From contig OZ316891.1 in the NCBI GenBank assembly GCA_973895155.1, positions 1,975,324 through 2,039,323 on the forward strand: a DNA stretch of 64,000 bases, given 5' to 3'. Every line of letters begins with the position of its first letter. Position 1 is the first letter of the stretch. A program made the position numbers and the translations under genes. This DNA comes from Marsupella aquatica (Eukaryota; Plantae; Marchantiophyta). Of this stretch, positions 18,457 to 63,664 are shown piece by piece. The notes beneath the pieces were generated by a model. That model was not told the origin of the DNA. It saw only the letters and a program-made list of their open reading frames with translations, and ran no database searches.

Positions 18457-19272
18457 GTATCTAGTAGGCCTAGACCTGCGGCATCAGCACCTTATGTCCC
18501 ATCACAAGGTGTTCTAGATGCTATAGGCAATGCATTCTCACAAGCCTTGGGTCTAGCAACAGCCCCCTCCAGTCCTAGGGCAGTTGGGGGTGAGCCTGTT
18601 GTCCCAAGAGGGAGAAAGCGTTCCAAGAGACGGCCCCGAGGGGATACTGATTTGTACAAGGCAGTGGTTACCGATAGGTGGGGTGATTGTGAGTTTACTG
18701 GCAGATGTGTTCCTATCATCAATGACTGGGATCCCCAAACTCTTGGTTTGCCACAAGAGCTTTCCTATGGTGAGGAGGTAGAGGTTTGGGGAAGACGTTG
18801 GGTTATCAAACCTTCCACACTTGGGGATAGACATGGCTATGGAGTTTTTGCTTGTGAAGACATCATTGTGGATACCGAGAGTGGTAGTGGTGGACGCGGT
18901 CGAGAAGGACCTACGTTGTTTCCTTATGGTGGACCCATCTACAAGAGAAGACATTGGAACATGATCCTTGCACAACATCCTGAGTGGAAGACTTATGCCT
19001 TGGAGTTAGATACTTTTGATGGAAACACTAGGAGGTATAGTGAGCAGCGGGTGATAGATGGGGACCCCATACGAACTGGGAATATAGCTGGTTTCATAAA
19101 CAGTACTGTGGGGACTCGCCCCAAGCGTAGGCAAAATTCTGAGTGGGTTTTCATTGAGGGTCCTCCACCAGCCCCTTATGGCCAGACATATCATCATGAC
19201 CATTGTCTGGTTGTAGCTACTAGGACCATTCACTCAGGTGATGAGTTGTCTACTCACTATGTGTGGGATTAG
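18457..19272 (+). CDS. CACTA-1-encoded SET-domain protein (terminal exon nested in TnpD intron 1)
   Basis: HGYGVFACEDI (motif I), FPYGG (motif II), IDGDPIRTGNIAGFINST...QNSEW (motif III-like), VATRTIHSGDELSTHY (motif IV); phase-0 acceptor ...gaatag|GTA at 18456/18457; uninterrupted frame. Confidence 0.85.
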   Translation, partial: VSSRPRPAASAPYVPSQGVLDAIGNAFSQALGLATAPSSPRAVGGEPVVPRGRKRSKRRPRGDTDLYKAVVTDRWGDCEFTGRCVPIINDWDPQTLGLPQELSYGEEVEVWGRRWVIKPSTLGDRHGYGVFACEDIIVDTESGSGGRGREGPTLFPYGGPIYKRRHWNMILAQHPEWKTYALELDTFDGNTRRYSEQRVIDGDPIRTGNIAGFINSTVGTRPKRRQNSEWVFIEGPPPAPYGQTYHHDHCLVVATRTIHSGDELSTHYVWD

Positions 19273-19415
19273 AAAATGACCATACACATGGCGTTTGGCC
19301 ACATTTTGTATTTACACCAGTACCGATATTATTTCATGTTTGCACACCCCCATATATTCTTCTACATGTTGTAACTATTTGCTTTGTAACTTTCAATTGT
19401 TTGCATTGTTTTTAG

Positions 19416-22400: not shown

Positions 22401-22830
22401 GTTTTGTCAGGACTCCCGGAGTAGCCGACATGACAGGAATATTGTTCGTGATGTTGTGCCACACTATGGGAAGATAGAGGAGATTTTGGTGGTCTTATAT
22501 GACAACCAATCTAAGTTTGAGGAGTATGTCTTCAAGTGCAAGTGGTTCAAAGTGAACCTTGTTGGTAATAATCGCACTGTACTCCAAGATGAGAGTGGGT
22601 TTACACGGTTGAGGACAAGTGCCACTAGTTTTCAAGCATCTCATTGGCAAACGTCAGAGCCATTTACTTTCCCATCTCACTTGGAGCAATGTTTCTACGT
22701 TCCATACCCCTTAGACCCAGAGTGGTCACTTGTCATCACATATGTGCCACGGTCTCGTTCCATTGTTTCAGACAAGCCAGACACTATTTTTGTGTCAGAT
22801 GTAGAGGACATTGAAGGTGACCAAGTGTGA
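19416..22830 (+). CDS. CACTA-1 TnpD-type transposase; exons 19416-20601, 20714-22172, 22344-22830 (plus an upstream exon ending at 18355)
   Basis: IHACVNDCMLF, RLGLASDGVSP, WPVVVMNYNLPPW, WTMHDYPG, LDPMHIEGNV, LKTHDYH, PPSFFDCQVHLLVHL, GPVHCRWMYWLER, YGKIEEI and FKCKWF; GT-AG introns join in frame with no stops. Confidence 0.95.
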
Positions 22831-23729
22831 GAGACACTTATGGATATTTAAACCAAAAATCTATATCATGGATTGTTCATGTTGTTTCTTAATTAATATT
22901 TCATACACCATTAGTGTGGTAGGTATTTTCATTTTGGACTCCTACTTCAAAAGAGGTCATGCATATAAGTGACATGGGTACTCCCTCCCTTATCCCTCCT
23001 CCCTCTTTGAACCCAAACTCTCCTTCCTCTTCCAAAAACTCCATAGCTTTTTCTCCTCCCTCCCTCTTCGCTAAAGTCTCTCCTATTTTTAGTAAACCCT
23101 CTTTGGACTCCCTTCTTCCTCCGTCCCTCATCCACCTTCCAACTCCCTTCCTCCCTCTTTCACCTTTCACCTCCCTCCCTCCTCCTCCCCCATTCAAACT
23201 CTAACCTAGATGCACACATAAGTCTAACATAAACGTTTGCGAACTGTTTGCGAAACTAAACAAATCCCAACCAAATCGCAATTCTGCCATTTAAATCGTT
23301 TCTCAATTATTCCATACTATACGCTTCACTATTTTGCGATATCCAGACCATCCCACCTTTACCATCCACATCGTTTCGCATATTTGCCATACAAACCCAT
23401 CGCAAATTGTTTGAAGCTAACCTTTTCGCAAACATCCTCCAATACTAATTGTTTCGCATCATTAATGTTACCGTGGTTTCGGACTTTCAGAGTGGTCACG
23501 GAGCCTTCGTTATGTGTTTTGTAATCTCTGTAGTTTCGCAAACTATTGTGATACAATAAAGTTCGCAAAATGTTTGCGATGCAAATCGCATGGAAGACCA
23601 AAGTTGCGATACCACAAGTATCGCAAATTGCGATGCGTATTGAGTCATCAACGGTTTGAAGCATCTGGAATCGCAAACGTGTGTCCGGACTCAAATGAGC
23701 TTCGCAAAAGGGCAAAATATGTTGTAGTG

Positions 23730-24867
23730 TTTGCAGATTGCTCAAGTCCTTGTATGGATTGAAGCAGTCTCCCAGACAATGGAACAAGCGGTTTGATGAT
23801 TTCATGCTTGCTCAAGGTTTTACAAGGATGGTGTATGATCCTTGTGTGTATACGAAATCAATCAAGAATGATGTATTTGGTTTCATCATTCTGGTGATCT
23901 ATGTGGATGACATGCTGATTGTGGCTAAAGATCAATCTGAGGTTGACAGTCTCAAGGCGAAACTGAGTGCTGAATTCAGGATGAAGGATCTTGGTAAGGC
24001 CAAGAGGATCTTAGGGATGGAGATTTTTAGGAACTCTGAGACTGGACAGTTGTGATTGAGTCAAGGCCAGTATGCGAGGAAAGTACTTGCACGATTCAAC
24101 ATGGAGAACTGTAAGCCAGTGAGTATTCCTTTAGCTTCACATTTCAAGTTATCATCGGCTTTCTCTCCTACGGATGCTGTGGAGAAAGGTCTGATGGCTA
24201 AGATTCCTTATGAGAAGGCAGTAGGCAGTCTGATGTATTTGATGACTTGTACTAGGCCTGACTTGGCCCTAGCGATGGGCAAGGTCAGCAGATTCATGTC
24301 AAATCCAGGGAAGATACATTGGGAAGCTGTGAAGTGGATTCTCAGGTATCTCAAGGGTACACAAGACTATGGATTACTATTTGATAACAGATCAGATAGA
24401 ACATTAGTTGGCTATGTAGATTCTGACTATGGAGGCTGTCTGGATACAAGGAGGTCTAAAATTGGGTTTGTTTACACTCTTGGAGGAGGATGTATCAGTT
24501 GGAAATCTACCTTGCAGAAGTGCATATCTCAGTCTACTACAAAAGCAGAGTACGTTGCAGCAGCAGGAGCAGCAAAGGAAGCAATTTGGTTGGATAAGTT
24601 GATCGCGGAGATGGGTTTAGAGCATGGAAAATGACTCTAAACTGTGATAGTCAGAGTGCTCTTCACTTGGCTGCTAACCAGGTGATGGATAGCAGGGTGA
24701 AGCACATTGATATCAGGTACCATTTTATCAGGCAAGTAGTGTCTGATAAAACTTTTGAGCTAGTCAAGATTGATGGAAAGCTCAATCCCACTGATGCCTT
24801 TACCAAAGTGATTCCTTTGGAGAGTTTCTCAAGACACCGTGCTACTTTGCAGGTTTTGCAGTTGTAG
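23730..24867 (+). pseudogene. Copia RT (3' part) and RNase H
   Basis: LYGLKQSPRQW, IYVDDMLI, GYVDSDYGG, CDSQSALHLA and KHIDIRYHFIR; stop at about 24053 and frameshift at about 24632. Confidence 0.93.
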
Positions 24868-25074: not shown

Positions 25075-25418
25075 TGTTAGATATTGCTCTAGTCTTGTGA
25101 CTCATGAGCTAACTATAGTTAAGCTAACTCGGGTTAGGACTTAGCTAATGTTAGCGGTAGTGCTGTTGTGCATATAGCCAGGGCTGATGCCAGACCCTGG
25201 TGGAACAAAGGCTCATTGTTACGGAGCTAGTTGAGAGATAGGGAGAGCTTGTGTTGTGGATACTTGGTATGGCCGGTCGGCCTAGAGTGCAGTAAAGTTC
25301 TTGTGTGTTCCCGTGGACGTAGCCTCATGTGGAGGTGAACCACGTATCTCTCTGTGTCGACTATTGTGCTCTGGATGGTTCATGGGCTTGCCGTTACGAA
25401 TGTCGTCTATGCTCAACA
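25075..25418 (+). repeat. Copia 3' LTR (344 bp)
   Basis: Direct repeat of 11191-11534, followed by the CATTG TSD. Confidence 0.95.
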
Positions 25419-26067: not shown

Positions 26068-26399
26068 GGGCAGGTTTAGGTTCATAATTTTGACACTGGG
26101 GGGACAGGATAGGAACAACAGAAACTAATTAATGTAAGCTCGGGAGCTTCTTCCAGAGTAGACTCTAAATAAATTGCTCAAATCGTCGAGGAAAGCTTTG
26201 AAATCTCATCGCAATTCCAATCTACAGGAGTCTCTCGAAGACCGGAGAAAACAAAGCCCATGAATTCAAGATCTCCTGCTTCTCCAGCTTAGGGCTCAGG
26301 GCTCCAGACTTCTCGTGCGCACCAGAAGTGAATGCGGGATGATTCGCTTGGGTTGGTACGAGAGGTGTAGTTCCATCGCAATTGCAATGTAGGCTTTCG

Positions 26400-28088
26400 A
26401 TGGCCGGAGGAGACAAGGCCCGTGCTGCGGAGCAGGGCTCTTTGCTGTTCCACACATTCAAACATCTTCTGCTTTCTCGGGTGTTGTCAAGAGTCATCAC
26501 ATTCATGCTCCGGCTGCTGGTGGCCCGCCGGCTCAATCCCGACCAGTATGCGCTCTCCGCCATCCAGTTCCATCTGCTGACGACCACAATTCTGTTCATC
26601 AGCCGTGAGGGCTTTCGAAGGGGATGCCTCCGTAGCAATTCAGGGGTTAGGCAGGGCGTCACTGAAGGAGAGAATGAGAATGAGGCGGAAAATGTGAGTG
26701 AAGGAGGACATCTCAGTGAAGGTGAAATCAACGCGAAGATTGTGACCGTGGCATGGCTGACAGTGCCAATTGGAGCTGCGCTCTCGGTGGCCACATGTGC
26801 TCTCGTTCTTTGGTGGCAAGGGGCAGATGAGGTATCCAGTGAATACTTCTTGTCCGTCTGGCTTCATGGGTTGGGTGCTTTACTTGAAATTCTGAGTGAA
26901 CCTCTCTACATTCTCTCCCAGCGGCTCCTATTTTTGAAGCTCCGGATAGTTATTGAAGGGCTGGCAACATTTTTCTGGTCGTTTACCACCTATGCTCTGC
27001 TTGTGCTTGGCATTGGAAAGGGTGGAGGCCTTGTCTTTGCCTATGCTCAAATTGCATACGGTGCCTGCCTGCTGGTTGGGTACTGGTCATATTTTGTTCT
27101 CAGGTTTCATGGCCCTCAGAACAAGGTGGTGTCATTTTTTCCTACCTGGAAAAATCGAAGGATTTTAATAGACAAGCCAATGGCGAATTTATGCTTCATC
27201 TTCACACTTCAATCTGTTCAAAAACTGGTTTTGCAAGAAGGGGAGAAGTTGGTGCTTGTGTTGTTTGACACAACCTATAATCAAGGGGTGTATGGGCTGG
27301 TAGACAACCTGGGCAGCCTTGTGGTGAGATCCTTCTTGCAACCTTTTGAAGAGAGTGTGTTCACCATGTTTGCAAAGTCCTCCTCAGGTGTCCCAAGCGG
27401 TGCAGCAATCAGGCCTTCAAGATCCTTGGTTGGGTCGGAAAACATTCTTTTATTGGCTTTGAAGCTGGTGAGCTTCATTGGTTTGATATTTGTGACTTTT
27501 GGTCCGAGCTACTCTTACTTGCTCTTACGCCTATTGTATGGTCGCACATGGAGTGACACAGAGGCTCCAACAGCACTGGGTTGCTACTGTGTTTACATCA
27601 TGGCCTTGGCAGTGAATGGTACAACAGAAGCGTTTCTCCATGCGGTTGTGACCAGGAAGCAGCTTCTATGGTCCAATGCGTGGCTCACCCTTTTTTCAGT
27701 TGTTTACATGTCCCTCAGTGTGCTTTTGATTGGTGCAGCAGGATCTACAGGCCTCATCCTGGCTAATGCTCTCAATATGGCGATGCGGATTGTATACTCG
27801 TTGGTCTTCATTCGGTCATTTTTCAAGGATTCTTCAACATTTAGTTTACAAAGGGCGCTTCCAGGCTTCCATGTCTTGGCAGTCTTGGCAGGATCAGCAT
27901 TGGTGACATATCTGTCAAATAAGTATGTTCTTGATCCTGATCGGTTCTCTTCATCAGGTATCTTACATGTCATCATTGGGACTGGATGCCTGGCGGCTGT
28001 GATCGCCTCTGTGTACAAATATGAGAGGGCCTTTCTCAGGGATCTTTCTAGACTGAAAGGAGGCGAGGCTGAAAATAAGTCAGAGTAG
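26400..28088 (+). CDS. RFT1: RFT1 homolog (Man5GlcNAc2-PP-dolichol translocation family), single coding exon
   Basis: [62 protein letters not shown] and [13 protein letters not shown]; multi-transmembrane protein; ATG at 26400. Confidence 0.95.
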
Positions 28089-33680: not shown

Positions 33681-34138
33681 CAACCAGTTGTGTCCGTGTG
33701 TCGGTTTTCTTGCTGTGCTTTTCGTCGGTCTGCATTGCTGCTGCTGCCATCGACGTTGTGTGTTGCTTTTTCGAGCTCTCTGGTCCTGGTTTGTTTATCT
33801 CTTTGGTTTGTACGGCTCTTTCTGCATCTGTCGTCCGGCGTGCACTGCGCATCGTGTGTCCCAGCCGCCCGGTGACGCCTGAGGTTCTGAGATTTGCTCT
33901 TCTTGAGCTGTTCTTGCGTCGTCTAGGGGCCGAAGGTGCTAGTTTTGTGTGTCGGCTTCTTGTGTACCGCTTTAAAGCGTCAACGTGCACGTCTGTAATT
34001 TGGTTTTCGTTGTTTGCCTTGTTTTATTCTCTTTTTGACGTTTTTTGCACTCAATGTCGTGGCAGGTCGCGGCGATCTCACCATTTTGAATTTTTGAGGT
34101 CTAAATATTTTGGAGCTTGAGAAGGCGTCCGAGTCTCC

Positions 34139-35506
34139 ATGGCTATGGCTGCCATTGAGGCCCTGCCTGTTTCCGGGCCTGGACGATGCAATGGGCCCCT
34201 ACTCGCATTTGGACGGACGTCCAGACAGAGCTCCTCCGCGCTTCCTGTGGTGCCTTGGAAGCAGCTCAAGTCTGATGCAGAACAGAGGACCATTCGAGAT
34301 CATTGTTCTCAGGGAAGGACCATAGGCAATGCTAGACGAAGAGCTGGATGTCTGAATTGCATTGCTTTGAAGAGAGGTTTGGGAGGAGAAAGGTGGAGGC
34401 AGCAGCGGCTCGGCTGTGGCCTTAGGTTTCGTCTTCCCACCTATGGAAATGGGCAATTTGAGAGATGTTCCCTCCGAGCTGTGAGCAGCGATTATGTTGG
34501 AGATGCGGAGCCATCGTCGTCATCCTCGTCAGAAGAGGAGAGTGTTGAGGCGTTGGAATCGGACACAGAGAAGAGCGAGGTGTCCTTGTCTTTTGCCGAG
34601 AAGGCTACTTTGTTCCAGAGTGCGTTTTGGAGGTTTTTGAGGCCTCACACGATCCGTGGGACACTGCTGGGCTCCTCGGCTCTCGTGGCGAGAGCGCTGA
34701 TAGAGAATCCCCAGCTCATTAATTGGGCTCTTCTGCCGAAGGCTTTGCGAGGGGTTCTCGCTCTGCTATGTGGTAACGGGTACATTGTGGGCATAAACCA
34801 AATCTATGATGTGGGAATTGACAAAATCAACAAGCCCTTCTTGCCAATTGCCGCTGGAGACCTCTCGATTCCTGCGGCGTGGGGTTTGGTTGTAGGGTTG
34901 GCAGCACTTGGAATTGCAATTGCCAGCACCAACTTTGGGCCTCTGATCACAGTGCTCTACTCGTTTGGTCTGTTCCTTGGGACCATTTATTCCGTGCCTC
35001 CATTTCACTTGAAAAGATTCGCTGTGCCAGCTTTCCTCATCATTGCTACTGTAAGGGGATTTCTTCTCAACTTTGGGGTGTACTATGCGACCAGAGTTGC
35101 CCTGGGGCTTCAGTATCAGTGGAGTCCTTCCATAGTATTTATCACATGTTTCGTGACCGTCTTTGCCACAGTTATCGCCATCACGAAGGACCTCCCAGAC
35201 ATAGAAGGCGACCGGAAATTCAACATCTCCACGTTTGCCACGAAACTTGGTGTGCGCAAGATCTCGTTTCTGGGAGCTGGTTTGCTGCTTGCCAATTACG
35301 TAGGAGCAATTATTGCAGCAATTTACCTGCCTCAGAGCTTTAACCAGAAAGTGATGATTCCAGCTCATGCTATTCTTGCTGCAGCTCTGGTGTATCAGAC
35401 ATGGTTGTTGGACTCGGCCAAGTACACAAAAGAGAGCATAGCAGGATTTTATAGGTTCATTTGGAATCTTTTCTATTCACAATATATCTTGCTACCCTTT
35501 ATTTGA
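34139..35506 (+). CDS. HST: Homogentisate solanesyltransferase (UbiA family, plastoquinone synthesis) with a transit-peptide-like N-terminus; single coding exon
   Basis: [72 protein letters not shown] and [10 protein letters not shown]. Confidence 0.95.
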
Positions 35507-43532: not shown

Positions 43533-44069
43533 TTATTGCGATCGCACCACCGGCCTCGATACCGAGAAGCCGTTGGCGCGTCTTGGTACTGTCATAAACG
43601 CAACGAACTCGTCGTAAGTTACCTTGTTCGGGACGGTCCGCAAACCAGGTCCCTTCAGCATTGCCAAGAAATCCGCATCTGAGAGACGACTCCCGAGAGA
43701 GTACATGACAGCATCCAAGTCCTTCTTACACACAAATCCGTCGCAATTTTTGTCCAACGCCCGAAACATGGTCTCGAGAACCTCATCAGTGTTCTCTTCC
43801 TTACTAAGCGCCGATATATCACTCATCGGCTCAAAATTCAACAACAGTAAGAACTGCTCCAAATCAACATTCCCATCCACCAGAGCGAGCATGTGCTGCA
43901 CGTCATCCTTCGATATAAGCTTGCACGCTACGCTCTCCTGTAAAAACAGCTCTAAATCCGACGTCGCAATGATACCATCACCGTCCCTGTCTAACACGGC
44001 AAACGCCTCTTGCAATCGCTCGAGATTGTTATCCAACGTCAACCCCCGATCCCTCCTCGTGGGACACAT
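43533..44069 (-). CDS. Calmodulin-like EF-hand protein (CML), single exon
   Basis: ATG at 44069 (MCPT...); EF loops DRDGDGIIATSDL and DKNCDGFVCKKDL, plus degenerate loops (NVDLEQF, KVTYDEF). Confidence 0.85.
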   Translation of the reverse strand: MCPTRRDRGLTLDNNLERLQEAFAVLDRDGDGIIATSDLELFLQESVACKLISKDDVQHMLALVDGNVDLEQFLLLLNFEPMSDISALSKEENTDEVLETMFRALDKNCDGFVCKKDLDAVMYSLGSRLSDADFLAMLKGPGLRTVPNKVTYDEFVAFMTVPRRANGFSVSRPVVRSQ

Positions 44070-44499
44070 CTCCTTATCCGGTAACTCAAACAAATCTCCC
44101 CAAGTTTTCTGAAAATCTCTGTGTGTCTCCGCCAATGAAGCAATTCCCTCCAGTTAACAAGTAAGGCAACGCCACACCACACGCAACACGTTAAATCGAC
44201 GAAAGAATCTCCACCTTCCGAACGAACTCAACAACCAGCGGAAGTCCAATCGCGCTGCTGCCACAGCATGAGGCGTCCACGCCACCCACAAACTCTCCCA
44301 AACCAAAACAAACGAGAGGCGCGCCAATCAATCGATCCTCAAGAGATCCGTAACAGAATCAAGCGAAACAGCACACAGCGTACAGGAGACGAGCGCTGTG
44401 TGGGTTCTGCTGTGTGGGTTCAGGTCGAATTACAGATCTCCAATGCGCGCTCCTCCTGCTTCTCCTCCACACACACTTAACTCTGAGCGGCAGCAGAGC

Positions 44500-49840: not shown

Positions 49841-51863
49841 TTTATGAACAAGGAATCAGCTTTTCACAACAACGTCACTTGGTTTCAAGCCTCCAAAATA
49901 TTCTTTACGCCTATGGAGAGGGAGAGGACGACTACCCCCTCCAGGTCAGTCTTTGTTTCTTTGCTTCAATTACTTTTGGAATTTCTTTGCAAATTGTGAA
50001 TACATGAGCCTCATCGTATTCGGATGCTCCTTGTGTTCATTGCAGGAAGGAGTAGTATCGGAGACTATCTCGGAGTTCGTAGCACCACCAACCCCTACAC
50101 CTGAGACTCTACTCCCAAACTTCATAGCGCCAGTCGCAGCAACAGCACCAGCCCCTGTATCGTGTATATTAGTCTCGGAGTCCTTACCACCACTTGCACC
50201 AGCACCACCAGCCATTGCACCACAGATTGTACTATTAGAGTCGGTACCAGTAGCAGCAGCACGACCACCACCAACAGCCCCTACACCACAGATTGTAAGT
50301 CTCTAAAGTGCAAACTTGGAAGTCATTCAATTGCAATCTAGTCTGAATACTTAAACCCCAATGTCTTTTCACTCCCCTAAGCATTCATTTCATATATTGT
50401 AGGGACAAAGACGAAGGGGAAGGGGTGTACCACTGGAGTCCCCATCCCCAGTACAGAAAGCAGCACCATCCCCTCCAATGTCAACAAACCCCTTCCAGGT
50501 TTGCCTTTGTGTTTTTTGTAAAAACATATGTTTGCAATGCTTTGCAATGTCTGAATACAGCTGCCTCATTGTCTTCGCCGTGCACTGCAATTTCTTCATT
50601 CTAGAGACGGAGCGGAAGGACAAGTGGAGGGGTCGTAGCAGTGGAATCACCAGCACCAGCCCTCGCACCATGGATTGTAAGTCTCAGAAGTGCTTACTTG
50701 GAATTCGTGCAATTGCAATGTAGTCTAAATACTTCAACCCCAATGTCTTTTCACTCCCAGGTTTGCCTTTGTGTTTTCGGTAAAAACATTTGTTTCCAAT
50801 GCTTTGCAATGTCTGACTACATCTGCCTCATTGTCTTTGGTGTGCACTGCAATGTCTTCATTCTAGAGACGAAGTGGAAGGGCTCCTGGAGGGGTTGTAG
50901 CAGTGGAATCACCAGCACCAGCCCTCGCACCACAGATTGTAAGTCTCAAAAGCGCTTACTTGGAAGTTTGAATACATCACCCTAATTGTCTTCTGCGTGC
51001 ACTACAATTTCTTCATTCTAGCCCATGCACGGGAAAGAAATTTGATATAGGTCAGCCTGGTTTGCCTTCCTGTACAAGGCCACATTCCTTTCTATTCATA
51101 TTACTTTGCAGGGGTCACAACTACATTTTGACTCAACTTACCGTTGCCTCACAACAGGCTAATCTCGACGTATGAAACTCTAAATGGAAACACGGAATCC
51201 CCAAGGTAAAATTGGCAACATTCTGGACGTCTATATTGACGTGGTTTCTTACGTCGTCTCACACAACGCACATTGCCACACCGCCAACGTGGTTCTTTGT
51301 GTGCACGACATCCTATGCATCGTTAGAGTACTGGGCTAATGTAGATTTCCATGTCCATTGAACGTCGCACGGAGTGACGTTAATACAAACAAAACGTCGT
51401 GATTGACGACGTTGACTCCCTCGTATAAGACAACGTCAGTGTTTGTAACGATGTCTGGGACACCGTTCCGTTTGATGTAATGTGAATTCGTTCATTGGTT
51501 TACGTGGTGTGATAAGACGTTGTTATCATATATCGATGTCATGAACGACGTTGTGTGAAAGTGGAAGACTACGTCTGGGTCATACCTTGTGAGATGCTTG
51601 GTAACTTTATGAATGAACGACGCCCCGTATATTATGTCGGACCCTGCCATACAACCTTATTGGAGGTTATAAACACACTTAAGCTAGGGTTACAATGGGG
51701 TGAGCATTATTTGGGTAGGCAGTTGGGGTTTAGGGATACACATTCAATATGCATATGGTATAGACGTTGTAATCCGCGAAAAGTGTCGTATTGGATAATA
51801 TTGTTATGGGCCAAATATGTACAAAATGGAGGATGAAGTCGGGCAAGTAAAATAGGCTATACC

Positions 51864-54026
51864 CTAGTCACGCTCAGTCCGCCTGGTATCACGTCCAGAC
51901 CTGCGTGTAGAAGTGGGTTGTACGCCTCTCGGGCGCAACTCGTACCTGGAGTCATCCTCCTCTAAGCTAGTGGTACTGGGGGACAACGTATCTGCCTGTG
52001 TTGCAGCCCTATGAGTAGTCACTGGCCTACTCCCCTTACTGTGTGGAGGTCGCCTAGTGTCATCCCTCCTCCTCTCCCTCTCCCTCCCCCTCTGTCTATC
52101 TGACCTATCTCTCCCTATCTCCCTCTCTCTCCCTCCCTTGGCTCTCTCTCTCTCCCTCCGGCCTTGGCCACTAGTACGCCCCCCATGAGTCTCTGCCTCC
52201 TCCTGCCCGCAATCTACGTGAGCCTCCTCCTGCAAACCCTCCTCGGGCGGTACCCTGGCTGGCAAGTGATCCTCAGGGATGGCCCGTGCAACCAAGCCCT
52301 CCGGAGGAGTCCAATCCTCCACCTGCATGATAGCATTCTGGTCAGTTAATGTCACAGAGTAGGCCTAAAGTCAACTACAACCTAGCAATCACTTTAGCTC
52401 TTACCCGGTGATCCTCCGGGACTGAGGCCAACTTGGCCCATAGCGCTGCCGGGCCATACCGTTTCGAGTACAGCCGCTCCTCCTCCGACGGCTCGGCATC
52501 GACACCAAACTTGCGTTTCTGCGAGAAAGCAAAAGAACGTCGTTCCTAAGCACGTATTCAACCCTCTCAGCATCGGTGCTAACGTCGTTCCATGCGTTGC
52601 ATATCTAGTTAACGTCGCTCTAACGACGTTTTCACTAAAGCGGTACATGTAACGTCTCAAGGACGACGTTCTTCCTAAGGTACGTCTCAGATGAAGTTAC
52701 AAATCAAAGTTAACGTTGTTATGGACAACGTTATGAATGAATCAGGCGACGTAATTTCAAAATCTCGACGTTACACTATGGTTTACACCGGAGCAACGAA
52801 ATGAAAATGTGGAAGTTGGGTCCGAGACTTACGTAGGTTGCAAGGAACCCTCGCCATCCTCCTTGCCCCCAGAAATTGGTTACTAGAAGGCGTCCGCTAT
52901 TCTTTCGAGCTGCAGTGGCTTTGTCACCCATGTGCACTCGTTTTCCTACTGGGGTGTCTGGGGGTGCTTCAAGTTCAGACACGATCAAGTTGAAGTCCGA
53001 CTTGGCCATCCCTTCAGGCTTACGGTACTGCCCTGTCTTCTCGCATTTCATTGCTCGGACCTTGCTTCTCCACCTGAATCTTCTATCAGCAAGGAAACTC
53101 ACAATCTTCTGCCTGATGTGTCGAAAATCAATCTCTCTGCCATTCTTGAATCCGGCTTGTATGTCATTGAGGAGTACTTGAAACTTCTTTGTATTGTGCA
53201 CGAGGTCCTTCCAAGTCGTCCACCCAGGGCAGTGTTTCGTACAGCAGACCTGCACTCGATTCGTTAGCGCCTTCTCATCAAGCACCTCTGGCTTCGCATC
53301 AAAAGCAGCCAGGCTGATGACCGGCAGTTGTTCTTTGCTGGCAGGAGTAGCAACGGTTCGGTGAGGAGAAGCTCGCCGATGACCTCCTCCGATTGAATGT
53401 GAATGTCGATGTGACCTTCGACCTCTCCTATCTCTGTCCACCCTCAAATCTCGTTCAGCCCTTTTTCTCTTGTGTGTGCTGCGGCTGTCTCTTTCTCTGC
53501 GCTCCTTTCCCTTCCCCTTTTTTTGTCTCCTCTCAATGCTACTATTGCTACTCAAAGAACGGGAACGACGTCGCCTTCTGTGTGTCCGCAACTCTGTACT
53601 TGAATCATCAGGCTCATATCTCTGAATCCTCACTTGGCTCTTGATGGGAGTAACACAAGGTGGTTGTGAATCCGGCTCCATCCCAGAGAATGAGGGATAG
53701 TCCCAGACTGAGTCCATCAAGGGCGGGAAGGAAGCAAGAGGATCAAGTGATGCCCCCGGAAGGTCGCGCAAGAACTCTGGTGCTTGAATGTCGGGCTCAA
53801 CGTTGGATGCTGGAGCGTTCTTTTCTATGTTCTGAAGGTATTCCAAAAATCGTGACTCCTTCATCCCAGTTCCTCCCATGAATTGCCAACTCTGATTGAA
53901 AGCATCAATCAGTGAATGTGCTGACCGCAAAGCTGTTCGAACCTTCTCCACCTCCTCTGGGTCTTCCATGGAAACTTTCACAGCATCAAAGTTGATACTG
54001 AGGGGCAGATAAGCTGGACGTGACAT
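51864..54026 (-). CDS. CACTA-2 TnpA/Ptta-like accessory protein; exons 54026-52833, 52518-52405, ~52322-51864
   Basis: WKDL...FKNGREIDFRHIRQKIVSFLADRRFRWRSKVR...KPEGM...NFWGQGGWRGF is homologous to the CACTA-1 minus-strand gene; phase-0 GT-AG introns. Confidence 0.7.
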
Positions 54027-54544
54027 TGAGGCGAGACTTGGAGCAAATGTAGATGACCTTCACAAAGATTAGAGCTTCACTAGAGCTTCACTAGAGCCAC
54101 GAACAGAACAAAACACTAGATGTGGGGTGAGGTGTGTGCGGAATGGTCGAATGACTCACATTCGACACTATGCCCCGGTATTTTCCGAATAGAATGCGGC
54201 AGAGTTCGCAACAATGTGTTTCCGCCGTTCTCTGTCTATTTACGTTGTTTTTCACGACGATGCCCTAATTGATCGATTAGTAATACGTTGTGCTAGACGA
54301 CGTTTTCATTTAAACGTTGTTCTGTACATCGTTAAAAGGTAGGGTTTACTGTAACGTCGTGTGGGGTACGGTACATGACGTAGGGTTTAAGAAATACGTC
54401 GTGTATTGTGTTCTCGGCGACGTAAAGTGAAAGTACTTTGTTTTACTTGACGTAAATATTGTGGTACTATAGTGGTCCCGACATTCCATTTCCAAGGCTG
54501 AGTTTGCAAGTTTGCGTGTATATGTGTGTGTACTATTGCAGGCC

Positions 54545-57500
54545 ATGGCCTCGTGCTCATCGGAGTGGTCATCTGATGATCGCTATGATGGAGGTGCACA
54601 TCACCGAGACAGGTACCGCTCTCATGATAGGGGGAGGGAGAGGAGGAGGGAGCACTCACCTGCGAGGTCGAGATACCACTCAGTCGAGAGGAGGAGGGAC
54701 TTATCATCTGATAGGAGCAGGCACCATTCGTCTGAGAGGAGTTGGGATCAGTCTTCAGATAGGGAGTACCGATCTAGGGATCATCGACATCGGGAGCGAC
54801 GAAGGCATAGGAGGTCCCATCGATAGTCCCACCGCCACCGCCGGTCCAGGTCTCCCTCTGATGACCACACACCCCGACACCGATCACCCATGCCGGAGGA
54901 TGAGGATAGGTTTGGAGAGGCCATGGCTGCCCTTCAGGGGATTGGCCCAGTCCGAAAGATGCCCTGCCCATGTAGTAGATGCAAGGGCGTCGTCTCCCAC
55001 GAGAGGACCACTGTCCTTAGCCATTTAGGCCTCCACGGCCGTTACGTACCCCCGACACATCAGGTAATTCATAAACCTTTATTGACACTATTCAATTCAT
55101 TAAGTCCTTATTTTTGAATATAACATGTTTGGGTTTCTTGAGTTTCTTGAGTGTTTAGTTGGAATGGTTTTTTCCCTGATTTCTGAAGTTCTCTTGTTCA
55201 CATGTGAAACAGATTTTGTGTGTGGTCTCTCCGCCCTTGGACCACATGAGACAGGTTGCACGTCGCGCGCTCACAGCACTAGTTCCCCCATCAGCACTCG
55301 ATGCCACGTTAAGGGCAATAGACCGTGTTTTTGATAGGAGGAGGAGGGTCATTCGGAGTCACCCTATTGAGAGGGGAGTAGAGGTCACCACTAGACCTCG
55401 GTCCATTACGTCTCGTACCCCTAGGACGGTGCCGCCACACTGTCCTTTTCTTGATGCCTCTTTTTCCCGAGCACCAAGAGAGTTAAGAGGGAGAGCCTTG
55501 GACATCATAAAGGACTCATTCCCAACCCAGTTTGGCCTCCCTATGGTCCTGCTTGTTCGGGAGCCTATTGTAGTTTGGGATAGGCCATGGGTCCTCCTCC
55601 CATCCACATTGGGAGACGACGTAGGTCTTGGATTATTTGCACTTGTGGATATTGTGGTGCCGGAAGGTTGTGCACCTGAGGACCTGCCCGAGTTGATTCC
55701 ATTTTATGGGCCAAAGTATTCGGCCCATAGATGGCGTATCTTGTCTCGCCAATGCCCAACCTTTGGTCGGTATGGCATGTCACTAAAGTTGGACCCTAGG
55801 TATACTCAGATGGATGGTTACTCCCCTCGTACTGGAAACTTGGCGGGTTACATCAATAGCACAGTGGGGTGTCGGCGTTTGGGGTTCCGCCCCAACGCTG
55901 AGTGGCATGAGTACCATGACCAGAGTCACCCTCGTTTGCCCTTGGGATGCAGTCACTACATCCTGACACATGCCACCCACACCATTCGAGCAGGGGATGA
56001 GATATTTGTAGACTATGATTGGCATTGAAGATTATATATGTTATTGATCACTTATTCATTACTCAGAGTGAGACTTATATTGGATTCTTTGACCTTCATT
56101 ACCTCATGCACTATTGGGAACACATTGTCTAATTTGGGGATGACCTTATCTAATATTGACGTCTTGCATAGGATGGTCCAAATATAACACCTACACCTCA
56201 TCCATCGATGATGACGGAGTCAGCCCATTCGTTCCACATGCGAGCCACATTATCTTTTTCTGACGACGAAGATGTTGAGAGTGATCATGTGCATGAGGAC
56301 GAGGATGTGGACGAGGATGTGAATGAGTACCATGATGCACATGATGACGATTTTGATGAAGATGTAGAGGATGATATGGATGCACCTATTCTTGAAGAGG
56401 ATGCTTTTGCGCACCTTGTGGACATCCACTTTGGACCTCATGTACCTGAGGGTGACCCTCCTGTCATGGAACTAGACAAAGATGATTGGGACCAATTGGA
56501 AACTGAATCCAGGACTCCGCTATTCCAGGGTTCCCCGACCTCACGGTACATTTCTCTGAGGTGCTATTATAGTTTTTCTACTGTAATGTTGCTTAAGGGT
56601 GTGCATAAACCCTAAGTCCCCAATTGGACCATCCTCAATGGCATGCCTTAAACTAATTAAAAAGCTGGTTTCTTTGTGGTTTTCAATGCAAATGCAGGTT
56701 GGGAGCCACACTCTTGATGTTGAATTTACAGGGGGTTTTCAATGGATCAGATGTCCATACAGATGCACTCTTTGCGTTGTTCCACAACAAACTCTTGCCT
56801 CAACCTAACAACCTTCCAGGAAGTGTGAGGGAGGCTAAGAAGTTGTTATCATCTATCGGACTGGCGTTAGAGACTATACATATGTGCCCTCATGGGTGCA
56901 TCTTGTATAGAGGACCGTACTTGGACCTCACCCATTGCCCAATTGAGCGATGTGGCCTTCCACGGTATCGTCCTGATACCATTGGAGACAAGATTGCTGA
57001 GAAGGTAATGACGTCCTCTCTGTACCACATCTGTATTTTAGTAATTTTTTACGTACTTTACGGCATTTTGTGTCCCTTAACGTTGCCCTCGTGAGTAGTA
57101 CGTCTTTCAACTAGAAGTAAATAACCCTAACGTCTCCCTTGTGATTTTTACGTCTTTCCATACGATGTTTTTTAGTCCAACGTCGATTTTTGCAACGTAA
57201 AAGTTTAGAGAACGTAGATCTGCTCAACATGAAACTATAACGTCGTTCTGGACAATGTTCACTTTTAGGATACGTAGTTATGTTCAATACAGAAGTAATA
57301 CGTCGTATTGAACATTGTAAAGATTTTTGGAACGTAGTTATCGTCAACGTATTTGTGATGTTAACGACGAAATGCCGCCTCATGGTTGTTGTACATTTCA
57401 GGTACTGAGGTATTTTCCAATCACACCCCGATTGCAGCATCTATACCGGCGAAGACACCTATCCTCCCTACAGACTTGGCATGCCGAGACCAAATCCCCA

Positions 57501-60462
57501 GCAGGGATAATGCGGTATCACCAAGATAGTCCAGCATGGAAGCACATTGATGCCACATGGCCAGATTTTGCTGCAGAGCCACGGAACGTTCGGTTGGGGT
57601 TGGCCATAGATGGGGTAAACCCATACAAGCAGCGACGGAAACCAAAGTCCATTTGGCCAGTTCTTTTGATAAATCAGAACATCCCTCCATGGTTGGCGAT
57701 GAAAAAAGGTCATGTTCTCCTCCTAGCTATCATTCCCGGTCCCGAGGCTTGCAAGAATCCAGATGTTTGCTTGGCCCCAGCTTATGAAGAGCTACATGAC
57801 TTGTGGGAAATTGGGGCTCCAACAACAGATGTCACCCGTGCACCGGACAATGGGAGGACATTCAACATGAGAGTCATGATCACCCATTGCACCACTGATG
57901 GGCCCGGTAATTCAAAAACCTTACAAAATGTGATTATATTGTGCTAAATGACTTTATGTCTTCATTTGGCTTCTTTTATTGTGGGAATATGATGGGGTTT
58001 CCTTGGCAGGCATGGGCACAATATCAGGCTTGAAGGTGGCTGGGTACTCAGGTTGCCCTTCATGTGGCCCTGAGTTGCATGGGAGGTACTCAGTACTATT
58101 GCACAAAACCACATATGAGGGCTGCAGGATGAGATTGTCAATGGATGACCCCATGCGATGTAACACAAGACATTGGGCACAGACTGAGTTAAGACCATGT
58201 CCTAATGCGCCTTCAGCAGAAGCTCAAATTCAAATGGCAGAGATGGTGGAGGCTAAGCTGCTGAAACCCAAAGATTGTGGAGTAAACCGACGCTCAGCAT
58301 TGTGGGACTTGCCTTATTGGAGGGTAGGTACAATACACCTATCAAATGTTGTGTATAGATTTTTTCATCAACTCTCATAATGCTAGAGTTTTTCACTTGA
58401 TTACCATGTTGTGCAAGCAGATGCTCAAGATCCGGTGGCTACTGGACCCCATGCACATTGAAGTGAATGTCGCAAAGAATTTGGTGAAGCACATGTATGG
58501 TGAGAATGATACTCGTGGAGTTCGTGTGGATGCAAAGAATGTAGGAGTTGTGAAGAGCTGTTGGATATCAGGTACATGATAAAACATCGATCAACCCTTA
58601 ATTTGTAAGAAGTTGCCCGGATTTGCCTGAAACCCCAAACCCTAACAAGTTGATTATCTTTAATTATTGGACAGCACGTACTGGGGTGACACCACCAGCC
58701 CCTTGGATTTTGCCTCGAGACATTCTGAAGGATGTGAATGGGATGATTTGTGAGATGAAGTTCCCGAGCCATTACGGAGCTGGATTCCGTGGGTGCACAA
58801 CGAGGAATGAGTACATCCCCCCGATAGGGTTGAAGTCCCACGATTATCACAAGTTGATACAGCATGTGCTCCCTGCAGTGTTGCGTTGTTGCGATGATTC
58901 TAGAGAGCGCCACCTACTCCGACTCACAGTGTACGAGTTGTGCTCCATTTTCAGGTTGGAAATATCTTACTCGTGGATTTTGTGGTGTTATGGGACCATA
59001 AATTTATGGTGTCTCAAACGACATTCTAGAGAGGATACGTAGTCTCTTAATACTTTACGTCATCTATAACTAGGTAACGTAAAAATACGACTCCACATAC
59101 GACGTATTCAAGGTCGTATAAGTCACCCCTCTTCAGGAACGTCCTGCAGAGCGACGTTTGTAGGAATCTTAGTAGAGGGAATGTTAGTAGGCATTGAATT
59201 GGTAACCATCTTAGCCCACTTTCAGATTGGGCGGTGATATTTATTCCTGTCATGTTTTTGAGTGCCTCATAGGTGGGTATGTGCCAAGGAGATCAAGGAG
59301 TCAGAGATTCCTTTGATGAGGGAGAGGACGGCGCAAGTGATGTGAAATTTGGAGCGAGTGTTCCCCCCAGCACTGTTTGACATGCAAATGCATTTGCTAT
59401 GTCACCTGGTGGATGAAGTTGCCATTGCAGGCCCAGTCCATGCCCGATGGATGTATTGGGTTGAGCGATATATGAAGGTGCTCAAGGGTTGGGTGCGTCA
59501 ACCCGCTCGACCTGAGGGAAGTATGGCAACAGGGTTCATTATGTCAGAGTGTCTTTTCTATTCCGGGGGGGTGATAGGGAGTTTGGATAGCAAAGCTCCC
59601 ACAACTTGGGAAGAGGCACAAGATGATGACAATGGTGGGCTGCGATTGATGGGTGCGGCCAAGAAGCGATCATTGGATGATGACATCTTTCGTCGACAGA
59701 TCCATAATTATGTGTTGGGGAATCGACCGGAGATGTCTGATTGGAGGGAGATGTATAGGTATGGTACTCTAAAATTTTAATCGATTGTGAATTGGATTTG
59801 AGAAGGCTACAAATCTCTAACAATCTTGTGACAACGTATTTGGCAGTGCATGGTTGGAGCTTCAAGTGGGAGTTGCGCAAGCAGGTCGTGGCATTGCATC
59901 ATTTCGTGTCTGGGCTTTGGAGCGCATGGAGAGGCTCTTGGCTGTGCATGGGTCTACATCCATTCCCATTGATGTACAAAACATCATTAGAGGGCCAGGG
60001 ATGCGGGCCACGACTCATACACACATGTATGAGTCAGGGCATCACTTTCGGACTTGGAGGACAGACCATATGAAGAAGAGTACTTGTAACTCTGGAATCT
60101 TCATGATGACTGATGTAGATGATGTAGAGGTTCCTTATTGTGGGACAGTTGTGGACATTTTAGATGTTCATTTTGGGTCATTTGTCACCACTGTACTAGA
60201 GGTGAGGTGGCACAAGTCGATCATGTCACCCCCAGCGAGAGCTACGATGGTTGCGGATGAGTGTGGTTTTTATCGCGTGGACACAACCCGAGTTGCACCC
60301 ACAGGGACTGAGTTTAGTGAGACCATAGTTTTTCCTAGCCAGGTGGATTAGTGCATTATGGTTCCGATGCAGACCATGAGAGGATGGTCCATTGTCATAC
60401 CAATTTTCCCTCGGCGAAGGAAGGGCTTCATGGCATCTGTCCTTGCAGACGATGCGGACTGA
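54545..60462 (+). pseudogene. CACTA-2 TnpD transposase; exon 1 54545-55063, then 56172-56545, 56698-57004, 57402-57906, 58010-58323, 58421-58571, 58675-58954, 59273-59758, 59847-60462; stops at 54824, 59343 and 60349
   Basis: Exon 1 has an RS-rich tract and CPCSRCK...VLSHLGLHG (transposase-associated Zn motif); IHMCPHGCILY, RLGLAIDGVNP, LDPMHIEVNV, LKSHDYH, FDMQMHLLCHL, GPVHARWMYWVER and YCGTVVDI; splice phases are consistent. Confidence 0.92.
55255..56028 (+). CDS. CACTA-2-encoded SET-domain protein (terminal exon nested in TnpD intron 1)
   Basis: STLGDDVGLGLFALVDI, IPFYG, MDGYSPRTGNLAGYINSTVG...PNAEW, HATHTIRAGDEIFVDY; phase-0 acceptors at 55254/55255 (or 55212/55213); uninterrupted frame. 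Confidence 0.85.
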   Translation, partial: VARRALTALVPPSALDATLRAIDRVFDRRRRVIRSHPIERGVEVTTRPRSITSRTPRTVPPHCPFLDASFSRAPRELRGRALDIIKDSFPTQFGLPMVLLVREPIVVWDRPWVLLPSTLGDDVGLGLFALVDIVVPEGCAPEDLPELIPFYGPKYSAHRWRILSRQCPTFGRYGMSLKLDPRYTQMDGYSPRTGNLAGYINSTVGCRRLGFRPNAEWHEYHDQSHPRLPLGCSHYILTHATHTIRAGDEIFVDYDWH

Positions 60463-61098
60463 CACTATCCTTCACACCCTCCATTTATATGTATTGGCTA
60501 TGCCCACCTTCCACATATATATTGACATATGTTTCGACGTTTGAGATCTGGCAAACTGGAGGGAGAGTTGTGCAAAGTTTCTTCTTTCCTCACTTTATAG
60601 CTAAGAACACATTAAAAAGCATTAAACCTCGGCCTTCGAACAACCTTCAATGGGTCCTAGCACGTAAACCCTTATCACGTAGGCCAATTGACACTTCGAA
60701 CTTATTAACGTCAACTTCAACGTCATTAGACAATCAAAGGTCCCTTATACCCATAATGAAGACGTTAATCTATAGTTACGTCGTAGATACGTTGTACAAA
60801 CGACGTATACATAGTACGTCCTTGGTTTACCTCGTAGTAGACGACATAGATTGTGTTACCGTGTCTTAAACGACGTAAACGTTTATTTAACCATTCTTCT
60901 GATGACGTTCAAAGTTTCAATCGACGTTACTCACAAAACACATTACAAATATAAATTGCCTGGGAGGGACTTTTTATTCATGCGCTCAAAAACATACAAC
61001 GTGCACATAAGGCATGAGTCTGACTCCAGTCTAAACTGATTCCAATCCTAGGCAAATGATGCTCCTCCGTCTCCAGCTGACCTTGGCACTAGTGTAGC

Positions 61099-61659
61099 TT
61101 AAGGGGTCCCTTCACCAGACCAGTAGTACTCCTCATCTGCCTTCCTCTTTTTGTACGAATCATGCCTATTGCTGGCGTTCCATTTCTTGCGGACCACTGC
61201 TTCACCAACCTTCAGCCTTTCAGCCTCAATCTCAGCTGCACAGCTTTCCTTGTAGTCATACATCACAATATCAAGTTTAGTCGGTGACAACTGACATTTA
61301 GCCAACTTTGGTGGACAAGCCTCACCATCATCATCCTTGGGCGTATCGTCCAGCATCAAATCGTCCCCTGGATGCAGCAAAAACTCTTCTGGGTCCAACT
61401 CCTTATTGCCCAGAATGGAGTACTGTACCCAACAAATCGAGATGAAATGCACGGACTCTGCAAAGTGCTCGATCAATCCAGGATAGTCACTGAAGTGCTC
61501 TGTGACTTGTTTCCAGGTATTGGCAAGCAAGTATTCCGTCTTTGAGTTACAAAACTTGTCTATCACACCTCCACGACAAAAAAAGCCACGAACAGTCTTG
61601 TCTTCTTCACCTAGCGGAAGAAAACAACAGTGGACATCCTTGAATATCTTACGTACCAT
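61099..61659 (-). CDS. CACTA-2-borne single BRCT-domain protein (186 aa)
   Basis: ATG at 61659; IFKDVHCCF...RGGVIDKFCNSKTEYLLA...HFISICWVQYSILGNKELDPEEFLL fits the BRCT pattern (F-x-G/D, GG turn, T-x-LI, W-V-x-x-S-I, terminal aromatic). Confidence 0.7.
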   Translation of the reverse strand: MVRKIFKDVHCCFLPLGEEDKTVRGFFCRGGVIDKFCNSKTEYLLANTWKQVTEHFSDYPGLIEHFAESVHFISICWVQYSILGNKELDPEEFLLHPGDDLMLDDTPKDDDGEACPPKLAKCQLSPTKLDIVMYDYKESCAAEIEAERLKVGEAVVRKKWNASNRHDSYKKRKADEEYYWSGEGTP

Positions 61660-63664
61660 AGCTAAAGACTTTCAATCTCACTCTGCAAATTCTGTGCACT
61701 ATCGTACCCGTAGGACATCTGAAATCACGAATGACCTGTGCAGTGAGGTCCCAGTAGCCTTGCCCCAAAAACTCCCGCAAAAAACCTTACGCATGCCAAT
61801 TGGATTCCATTAACGTCGTTTCCCACATTGGTCATATACGTCTAACATCGCCCAACATCCATTATACGTCGTCATAGCATAGTATCCGTTATAGCCACGT
61901 CAAAAACGACGTACATCTATACGTCGACCCAACCCTATTCTGCTACACCGTCTGGGACGACGTCTACATGTTTGCCTCGTTATAAAAGACGTAAATAGCC
62001 CTATTGGGAGATACGTTAAATTAAAGACCCTCTAGACGACGTAAAATGGGAAGGAAAGTCAAATGGGTAAACCCATTTTGGGTTACGACGTAGAGGGAGA
62101 TGTACTGGGGAGTAACGTCGTGTCACATGACGCGAAAGGAAGTCACGACGTAGTGAAATGTAGTTGTGGGTTAAATACACAACCCTCGGTGTATTCAAGT
62201 CACTTAATGATATTCTCCATTGTAGAGAGGAAGTAAAAGGGGAAGGGGTGTATCAGCGGTGCCCCCAAAACCAGTAGCAGCACCAGCACCGACAAGCAAC
62301 CCCTCCCAGGTATGTCTTGATGTACCAGGCTAATTTCCTTATCAAACTGCTTTGCAGGGAGTGAATACACAACCCTCACTGTCTTCTATGTCAATTAATA
62401 ATTTTGTTCATTGTAGGGAGGAAGACAAAGGGGAAGGGATGTGTCAGCAATGTCCTCAGCACCAGTGGCACTAGCAATCCCAGTACCAGCTACCAACCCC
62501 TCCAAGGTACGCCTTTGTGTCTTAGGCCACATAATTGAATTCCTTCTCATCAGCGGCGTCCAATTGTTGAGTAATGTGAATACCTCTTTGTCAATGTATT
62601 TTGATGTTGCTTTGGATTGTAGGAAGGGCAACAACGGGAAAAGGCAAGCAAAAGGCGAAAAGGAAAGGGAAATTTGGTGGAGCAATCCCTTGCACCTGCC
62701 CCAACCCCTATCCCAACAAATGAACACTCAGCCCCTGTCCCTGTAACAACACCAACACATGCACCTGCCGGTATCCCTGGACCACCACTAGCACATGCCC
62801 CTACACCAGGACCAGCAGAAGCACCAGCCCCTATACCAGTGCCAACACCAGGCCCTGCACCGGCTACGAACTCCTCACAGGTGCAGCAGCAAAATTCCTC
62901 TGCTTCATTGTGGAATGTGAATACCTCTTTGTCCATGTATTCTAATGTCTTTGTGGGTTGTAGGTACCACAAGGAGGAGCTGCTTTGTCCTTAGTACCTG
63001 TTCTTGTCTCAAGGAAGAGGAAGGAGGCCTCTAAATCAAGCAAGGGTATGAGCCAGGCATTGCAAGTTGTTCCTCTATTGGCAGTCAACCCCAAAACAAA
63101 AGTTGTGTTTTTGCACCCCGAAGATGATGACTTAGCAACATCAGAAGTTGAAGACAGAGTGAGAGGCAAGCCAAAGCGAAGTAAAATTGCGACAAGTAGA
63201 GGGGGGGCAAGGGAGAGGAAGAGGAGCACAGTCTTCTACTCAACCAACTCCCTTGCATGAAATCCAGCTAGATGATGGTGACAATGTAGACACATTTGGG
63301 CCATCACAACTTTTGCATGACTCCCAAATGACTGCTTCACAAGATACATTCAGGGAGGTTATTGACCAACTCCCGCACCCTTCCCAGTATGCTGACTGAG
63401 CGTGGACACCCTTCCCGTGTGGTACTAAGCCATTTTTGTGGTAGCTTCAATGGTCTTTAGATGCAATGTAGCTTGAGGTAGCTTCAAATACAATGTAGCT
63501 TCATTGGAAGGCAAGGAGGCCCATGATACATCTACACTGCAAGGTCACAACTCGACTTGCAACTTGTACTGGAAACATTTATGAATAAAAAGCAAGTTGC
63601 ATTCACTGTGTTCTGATGTATAAAAGTTATTCATTCTGCTGGATACTACCTTCAGTTTGCACCT

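Follow-up and report, generated by a model that had tools for sequence, protein, structure and literature searches.

In Arabidopsis, TnpA binds clustered, family-specific motifs of the Spm1 and Spm3 transposons, with binding and demethylation limited to the termini (bioRxiv 10.64898/2026.08.24.746577). According to the same source, the site of TnpA-Spm1 is CCVTCGCAAA, specificity is conferred by clusters and not by single sites, the targets are demethylated and activated, and TnpA-like proteins are stated to be limited to flowering plants. In the VANDAL elements, VANC proteins bind motifs that are arranged as tandem repeats in introns, intergenic and terminal regions (PMC5735166, PMC10398659). 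VANC is MAIN-like (PMC13547354), and the terms 'periodic' and 'nucleosome' are absent from the available text of PMC5735166. The Plavaka elements of red algae contain internal inverted-repeat arrays beside PAG3, which were proposed as self-binding sites (bioRxiv 10.1101/2025.02.11.637652). Here we describe CACTA-2, an 11-kb transposon of the liverwort Marsupella aquatica, found in a window of 64,000 nucleotides (assembly GCA_973895155.1, contig OZ316891.1, positions 1,975,324 to 2,039,323). CACTA-2 carries clusters of a CpG-containing word at both ends and in five internal islands. Judging from the sequence, these clusters are likely, though far from surely, occupied by the element's TnpA-like protein in many copies, and the non-coding stretches would thereby stay open and unmethylated.

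The motif and its distribution in CACTA-2

When ACGT cores were counted in compartments drawn from gene models, independently of the motif, the non-coding DNA of CACTA-2 contained 86 in 4357 bases (19.7/kb), compared with 14 in 6696 bases of its coding DNA (2.1/kb) and 97 in the 44,649 bases that remain of the window when both CACTA elements are set aside (2.2/kb). Seven compartments hold 84 of the 86 non-coding cores: the two ends, three long introns (314, 397 and 318 bp) and two gaps between genes. Only two fall in the short introns and gaps, which are eight in number (82-152 bp each, together 918 bp). In six of the seven compartments, the observed count was not reached in any of 300 dinucleotide-preserving shuffles each, which keep the CpG count. 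The divergent region is more weakly enriched (9 ACGT against 5.1 in shuffles, p = 0.043), and with the borders given in an initial annotation of this DNA the values were 9 against 6.0 (maximum 11 in 1000 shuffles).

That annotation had reported seven dense motif clusters, and all were recovered at its positions, with the compartment counts and a k-mer scan in agreement; the density above shuffled and background sequence that it claimed was also observed. Its bounds and motif list required revision, as the element ends at 51116 and 62168, the termini begin with CACAA (the usual CACTA/EnSpm termini begin with CACTA or CACTG), and a single word, WACGTCGT, was obtained as the consensus of 83 aligned oriented cores. 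The islands that it placed in introns of the transposase gene TnpD are present in introns 3 and 7, only two of the eight.

The word is specific to the element. ACGACGT (either strand) occurs 27 times in CACTA-2 and not once in the remaining 53 kb of the window, and the exact WACGTCGT occurs 24 times in the islands and is absent from the non-transposon part. When all 5- and 6-mers were scanned over the window without bias, the peaks of ACGTC, AACGT and ACGTA were confined to CACTA-2. The share of CpGs that fall within ACGT is 42 % in the non-coding DNA of CACTA-2 and 6-7 % elsewhere, and thus the signal is a word and goes beyond mere CpG richness. The observed/expected CpG ratio is 1.48 in the islands and 0.55 in coding DNA. 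Sites are spaced at 4.6-5.0 per 100 bp in the internal islands and at 3.2-3.7 at the ends, and deamination relics of WACGTCGT are only mildly raised.

Spacing of the sites in CACTA-2 and related elements

The inverted pair WACGTCGT-N5-ACGACGTW, with its anchor CpGs 15 bp apart, was found 12 times in CACTA-2 against 0.8 expected. Seven of the pairs are internal (0.6 expected) and five terminal (0.2 expected), the latter all at the left end. The excess is significant across all spacings (P <=0.001, 2000 random placements), and the spacers of the pairs all differ and are unrelated. All nine matches to WACGT-N11-ACGTW in the window lie in the non-coding clusters of CACTA-2. A binder with two-fold symmetry is suggested by this constant inverted arrangement.

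The sites of the five internal islands are also phased. When period and offset were fitted freely (periods 6-20 bp, offsets 0-10, four site definitions), a period of 10.1-10.15 bp was obtained, with reversed sites shifted by 4-4.5 bp, or about half a turn. With random placement within each island as the null, none of 300 placements fitted as well under any of the four definitions. All 20 leave-one-out tests gave p <0.05, every island passing when excluded from the fit. The plain words ACGTC/GACGT in untrimmed compartments yielded the same period and offset (1 of 1500 random placements as good). Site pairs of opposite orientation other than the 15-bp pairs are likewise shifted by half a turn (45 pairs, P 0.0002). 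As this offset depends on orientation, it is not attributable to the symmetric CpG signal; the orientation-dependent phase suggests that many binders line up along a single DNA face. A period of 10.5 bp fits the internal islands poorly (score 6.0 vs 33.8), and island 5 becomes marginal once pairs are collapsed (P 0.08). At the ends of CACTA-2 long-range phasing was not significant (264 of 1500 placements as good), with the best fit still near 10 bp and at the same offset; the 5' end gave P 0.04 with pairs and 0.26 without pairs.

The motif had been called element-specific in the initial annotation, and the second CACTA element of the window, CACTA-1, bears this out with another word, TCGCAA, in the same 15-bp geometry. 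The two elements are 40-50 % identical in the main TnpD blocks. In CACTA-1, TCGCA occurs 18 and 17 times at the ends, nine times in the non-coding part of the orphan gene, four times in the divergent region and four times in all coding segments together, and TCGCAAA occurs 23 times in CACTA-1 against four elsewhere. The 15-bp inverted pair recurs nine times (0.5 expected), and the type TTGCGA-N11-TCGCAW has eight matches in the window, all of them in CACTA-1. The form common to both elements is RCGW-N11-WCGY. The intron island of CACTA-1 is phased at 10.6 bp (P 0.0002; 0.004 with pairs collapsed) and its ends are unphased (P 0.16-0.86). A further relative was obtained from a metagenome scan, in which 437 pattern matches led to three loci. 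One of these (L002, 2.2 kb) has an exon1-SET-TnpD layout like that of CACTA-2 and contains 10 ACGWC words in the 270 bases preceding exon 1, phased at 10.5 bp (P 0.006). L003 was excluded as bacterial-looking (27 % identity), and no relatives were found among viral contigs (0 of 16) or prokaryote genomes (0 of 39).

Table 1 Coordinates of CACTA-2, its motif clusters and coding units, and of the corresponding features of CACTA-1 (positions in the window)
Feature	Position	Strand	Details
CACTA-2	51116-62168		perfect 13-bp terminal inverted repeats; 3-bp target-site duplication
Target-site duplication GGT	left copy 51113-51115; right copy 62169-62171		
Left 13-bp terminal inverted repeat	51116-51128	+	CACAACTACATTT
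Right 13-bp terminal inverted repeat	62156-62168	-	
Left subterminal cluster	51164-51623		17 sites, five 15-bp inverted pairs
Orphan TnpA-like gene	51864-54026	-	predicted exons 54026-52833, 52518-52405, 52322-51864; 588 aa
Island 1	52533-52774		314-bp intron 1 of orphan TnpA-like gene; 12 sites, phased
Island 2	54218-54456		between divergent genes; 12 sites, phased
Shared exon 1	54545-55063	+	Arg/Ser-rich, Transpos_assoc-like Cys/His motif, one in-frame stop
SET-like exon	55213-56028	+	inside TnpD intron 1
TnpD transposase exons 2-9	56172-60463	+	all introns GT-AG, two in-frame stops
Island 3	57007-57373		397-bp TnpD intron 3 (57005-57401); 17 sites, strongest phasing
Island 4	59014-59160		318-bp TnpD intron 7 (58955-59272); 7 sites, phased
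Island 5	60658-60930		between convergent 3' ends of TnpD and ORF4; 13 sites, weakest phasing
ORF4	61099-61659	-	186 aa
Right subterminal cluster	61809-62154		11 sites, no 15-bp pair, phasing not significant
CACTA-1	15430-23729		CACTACAACA ends, TTT duplication; termini begin CACTA
CACTA-1 internal TCGCAA clusters	16775-16935; 18237-18400		non-coding part of TnpA-like gene; divergent region
CACTA-1 orphan helical domain	17696-17400		homologous to CACTA-2 orphan domain, E 3e-8
CACTA-1 SET-like ORF	18457-19272		

Coding units and the candidate binding protein

CACTA-2 has the 3-bp duplication, the TnpD transposase and the subterminal repeats in both orientations (17 and 11 sites) by which CACTA/EnSpm elements are recognized. 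It contains four coding units (the orphan gene, exon1-SET, exon1-TnpD and ORF4), in which exon 1 is shared and joins in frame either to the SET-like exon or to the TnpD exons. Splicing was predicted from GT-AG signals, open frames and homologues. TnpD matches the Pfam profiles Transposase_21 (E 1.9e-38) and DUF4218 (E 2.9e-24). The exon1-TnpD model contains three in-frame stops in this copy of CACTA-2, and the copy is therefore decayed. In the case of ORF4, which the initial annotation called a BRCT gene, the top Atlas match (0.88, 'BRCT domain-containing') is a lead only, and neither Pfam nor PDB sequence searches gave a match. Island 2 may lie in a promoter or in an intron of the 5' untranslated region; ahead of the ATG at 54545 there is a CAG resembling a splice acceptor. 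In island 3, the first motif starts a few bases from the splice donor (57005-57020), and the array occupies nearly the whole intron. Outside the element, a degenerate tandem repeat of the host (50100-51115 and 62169-62900), with Pro/Ala-rich frames and splice-like signals, is interrupted by CACTA-2.

The orphan gene has no internal stop, and its exon 1 ends in the sequence of a basic helical domain. Both of its predicted junctions are spanned by a protein of Calypogeia fissa (45 % identity over 156 columns), and this liverwort is the only named source of relatives of the orphan and SET proteins. The conserved part of the orphan protein had 13 relatives among 1.84 billion representatives; P0038 and P0040 were left out of the alignments for short or repetitive matches. 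Among longer proteins no homologue of the domain was found, and an alignment-based search gave one. The frame similarity of five relatives (P0029, P0031, P0034, P0036 and P0037) ends at the F-V position of intron 1, and this shared break suggests a conserved intron site.

When the domain was modelled from the alignment, the predicted local distance difference test score (pLDDT) was 78, with helices at 21-38, 45-50, 52-63, 74-98, 115-125 and 132-149; the single-sequence fold gave a pLDDT of 39.7. In both elements of the window, the domain has a long basic third helix (9 K/R, 1 D/E). Weak structural matches include Myb, homeodomain, BEN and MADF-type DNA binders as well as FF and other bundles, and Foldseek gave no match for the model. 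An Atlas lead to carnitine acyltransferase (<0.9) was rejected, and PDB sequence matches that stem from low-complexity columns were dismissed. We use 'TnpA-like' for position and inferred role, and family membership is not implied.

The SET-like exon matches the Pfam SET profile at E 3e-4 (21.5 bits, under the 22.4 cut-off), and all 11 of its aligned relatives match this profile weakly (best E 2e-5). Nine homologues were found, and the GLGLF, GYINS and DYDW motifs are conserved. The exon has no PDB sequence match and lacks the His of the usual NHS motif.

At 17112-17700, the conserved domain of the CACTA-1 orphan gene is interrupted by an in-frame stop, and the gene apparently changes frame further on. 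Direct repeats of 300 bp with 98 % identity (11191-11490 and 25075-25374) flank Copia-type open reading frames (ORFs; 12616-15479 and 24056-24634), and they are probably the long terminal repeats of a retrotransposon that hosts the CACTA-1 insertion.

Elsewhere in the window, long uninterrupted frames were observed at 932-1630, 6595-8733, 26343-28088 and 34121-35506, with translations that resemble an LRR protein, a RAD26/CSB-type ATPase, RFT1 and a homogentisate prenyltransferase, respectively. The length of these host frames suggests an intron-poor genome. A TGCAA/GTGCA cluster at 10430-10850 with a 25-bp inverted repeat (10555/10829) is possibly a MITE (miniature inverted-repeat transposable element), and an EF-hand (calmodulin-like) ORF lies at 43533-44153 on the minus strand.

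Possible roles of the arrays and comparison with known systems

That a single geometry is shared by two words and two homologous proteins suggests a product of the element itself as the binder, and we consider it quite probable that the clusters are bound by such a product. A two-fold symmetric binder would read the 15-bp inverted pair; the TnpA of maize binds as a dimer to inverted sites that lie in pairs. The phased sites would align the bound proteins on one helix face and so permit cooperative binding, and the candidate for the binder is the orphan helical protein. The description of the clusters as docking platforms in the initial annotation agrees with the fixed pairs and the helical phasing, which argue for protein docking. 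The spread along the whole element that it proposed has no counterpart in a gradient of CpG retention around the islands. Binding would then protect or demethylate CpGs locally and help the divergent genes to be transcribed; in Arabidopsis, TnpA is reported to act in this way at the termini. That anti-silencing or activation is the purpose of the arrays is slightly favoured, because the islands keep their CpG relative to coding DNA, because both elements hold an island between divergent genes, and because the CACTA-1 word matches the Arabidopsis TnpA-Spm1 site. Recruitment of the SET isoform to the arrays would be a speculative further step, as the SET exon and the islands are linked by co-occurrence alone.

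The same element-encoded protein could instead serve transposition or self-repression, by looping or compacting the element, pairing its ends or blocking transcription in introns. Excision depends on TnpA bound to the subterminal repeats, and such binding is able to stop RNA polymerase (PMC2613891), a bridging complex of TnpA and TnpD has been put forward as a model (PMC13547354), phased arrays would fit cooperative or wrapped complexes, and the coding DNA around the islands shows no gradient of CpG retention (0.64 near and 0.48 far in CACTA-2, reversed in CACTA-1). However, each site holds one or two CpGs spared the decay seen in coding DNA, an island occupies the divergent promoter region in both elements, and phasing is strongest internally, whereas the transposase acts at the ends; we regard such a role as rather unlikely, though it is the most serious of the alternatives. 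It is improbable that the islands are stress-switched enhancers for host factors with ACGT or CGT cores (bZIP, NAC). ACGT is a common plant bZIP core and enhancers would fit the placement in introns and gene gaps, but the 15-bp pair persists with a different word in CACTA-1, the exact word is confined as described above, the subterminal repeats use the identical word, and the CACTA-1 word matches a measured TnpA site. The inner CGT-N5-ACG spacing also differs from the NAC spacing.

The period itself could reflect nucleosomes, either because the islands position them or because CpGs on one wrapped face escaped methylation and decay. The helical repeat of nucleosomal DNA is 10.1 bp, 10.5 bp fits poorly, and the islands span 147-367 bp. 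Yet the island spacers have no AA/TT/TA phasing, CpGs in coding and background DNA have no 10-bp phase, the phase is tied to motif orientation, two relatives have periods of 10.5-10.6 bp, and the word and the pair are left unexplained, so that little weight is given to nucleosomes as the sole cause; binding on nucleosomes may combine this explanation with the favoured one. Least probable, and largely refuted, is a neutral origin of the islands, whether from MITE insertions, from tandem repeats that have decayed or from copied element ends. In its favour, the introns with islands exceed the others in length, and CACTA-1 lacks TnpD introns 3 and 7. Island 2 lies between two 10-bp arms whose flanks match over 3 bp, but these arms consist of the motif, and such a match also turned up in 7 of 200 random intervals. 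The other four of the five internal islands have no inverted arms with a duplication, and within the window the islands align neither with each other nor with the ends of CACTA-2. We therefore rejected MITEs, an origin that the initial annotation had named as counting against its reading. Tandem Repeats Finder returned a single array (3.2 x 11 bp, in one island), and autocorrelation with the motifs masked gave z <=2.3 at every lag.

Several points weigh against binding by the TnpA-like protein with an anti-silencing role. In addition to the missing CpG gradient, the decayed state of the copy and the possibility that a host factor reads ACGT, the patterns tested were picked from the same data, and the sample is a single copy per family plus one 2.2-kb relative. 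The phase period varies by element (10.1, 10.6 and 10.5 bp). A 4.8-kb stretch of CACTA-1 is free of islands, so that even cover is not general, and no island was found in the 1.6 kb examined of the metagenomic relative L001. The model of the orphan domain is one helical bundle in which the two tandem helix-turn-helix units of TnpA are not clearly present, its best structural match, to Reb1 (Z 5.8, root-mean-square deviation 3.8, 71 residues), is tied with GlnRS, and none of 14 aligned relatives matches Pfam Transposase_24 or Transposase_23.

A bolder version, which we hold to be doubtful, is that of self-editing: the orphan protein would polymerise on the phased arrays, possibly on nucleosomes, recruit the element's own SET protein and write a chromatin state along bryophyte CACTA elements, with the 15-bp/10-bp lattice kept and the word changing by family. 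If the SET exon takes part, a transposon would be writing histone marks on itself. The spacing code is precise and open to direct testing, with two homologous proteins and two words in one geometry. The system is thus suited to the questions of how transposon regulators shift specificity and whether phased cooperative binding beats heterochromatin.

In the literature searched, which was mostly non-subscription and did not extend to older maize work, neither internal nor phased islands of motifs were found described for CACTA elements, nor were SET-bearing CACTA elements of bryophytes. Maize En/Spm and soybean Tgm share with CACTA-2 the direct and inverted motifs near the ends, the 13-bp ends, the 3-bp duplication and the divergence of motifs between families, whereas their motifs are described as subterminal only and the CACTA-2 word recurs in long introns and gaps (PMC2613891, PMC8195511). 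CACTA-2 further differs from them in its CACAA ends and in a phase that is stricter internally than at the ends. Red-algal Plavaka elements of the EnSpm type also carry accessory genes, including one with a SET domain (PAG2) (bioRxiv 10.1101/2025.02.11.637652), but they belong to another lineage with other genes, and one tandem array beside one gene stands against the dispersed, phased intron islands described here.

CACTA-2 and the VANDAL elements both carry motifs specific to their family in non-coding DNA (introns, intergenic and terminal regions), and to this extent the VANC-like design proposed in the initial annotation holds. However, VANDAL belongs to the Mutator superfamily and the CACTA-2 transposase is of CACTA type, VANC targets tandem repeats and the CACTA-2 islands are not tandem repeats, and the VANC motifs as quoted contain no CpG, unlike the CACTA-2 word. 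No VANC-like or MAIN-like gene was detected with Pfam in the CACTA-2 ORFs.

The Arabidopsis Spm elements are of the same superfamily, have dense clusters of family-specific, CpG-containing words, and may encode the TnpA-like factor as a separate gene; the CACTA-1 word shares the core TCGCAAA with the Spm1 site. The initial annotation had presented sequence-specific anti-silencing as new to the superfamily, which does not hold, because anti-silencing by TnpA through motif clusters is already known from the Arabidopsis Spm termini (bioRxiv 10.64898/2026.08.24.746577). What is new is the internal islands, five in CACTA-2 as compared with clusters at the termini only, together with the inverted-pair spacing and the helical phasing, which relative to the available Arabidopsis text are reported only for the elements described here. 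The SET exon and ORF4 also set CACTA-2 apart from Arabidopsis Spm, and the named relatives of the orphan protein come from a liverwort, in contrast to the flowering-plant TnpA. CACTA-2 thus seemingly joins two designs, the TnpA-type anti-silencing of Spm ends and the whole-element motif islands so far described for VANDAL elements only.

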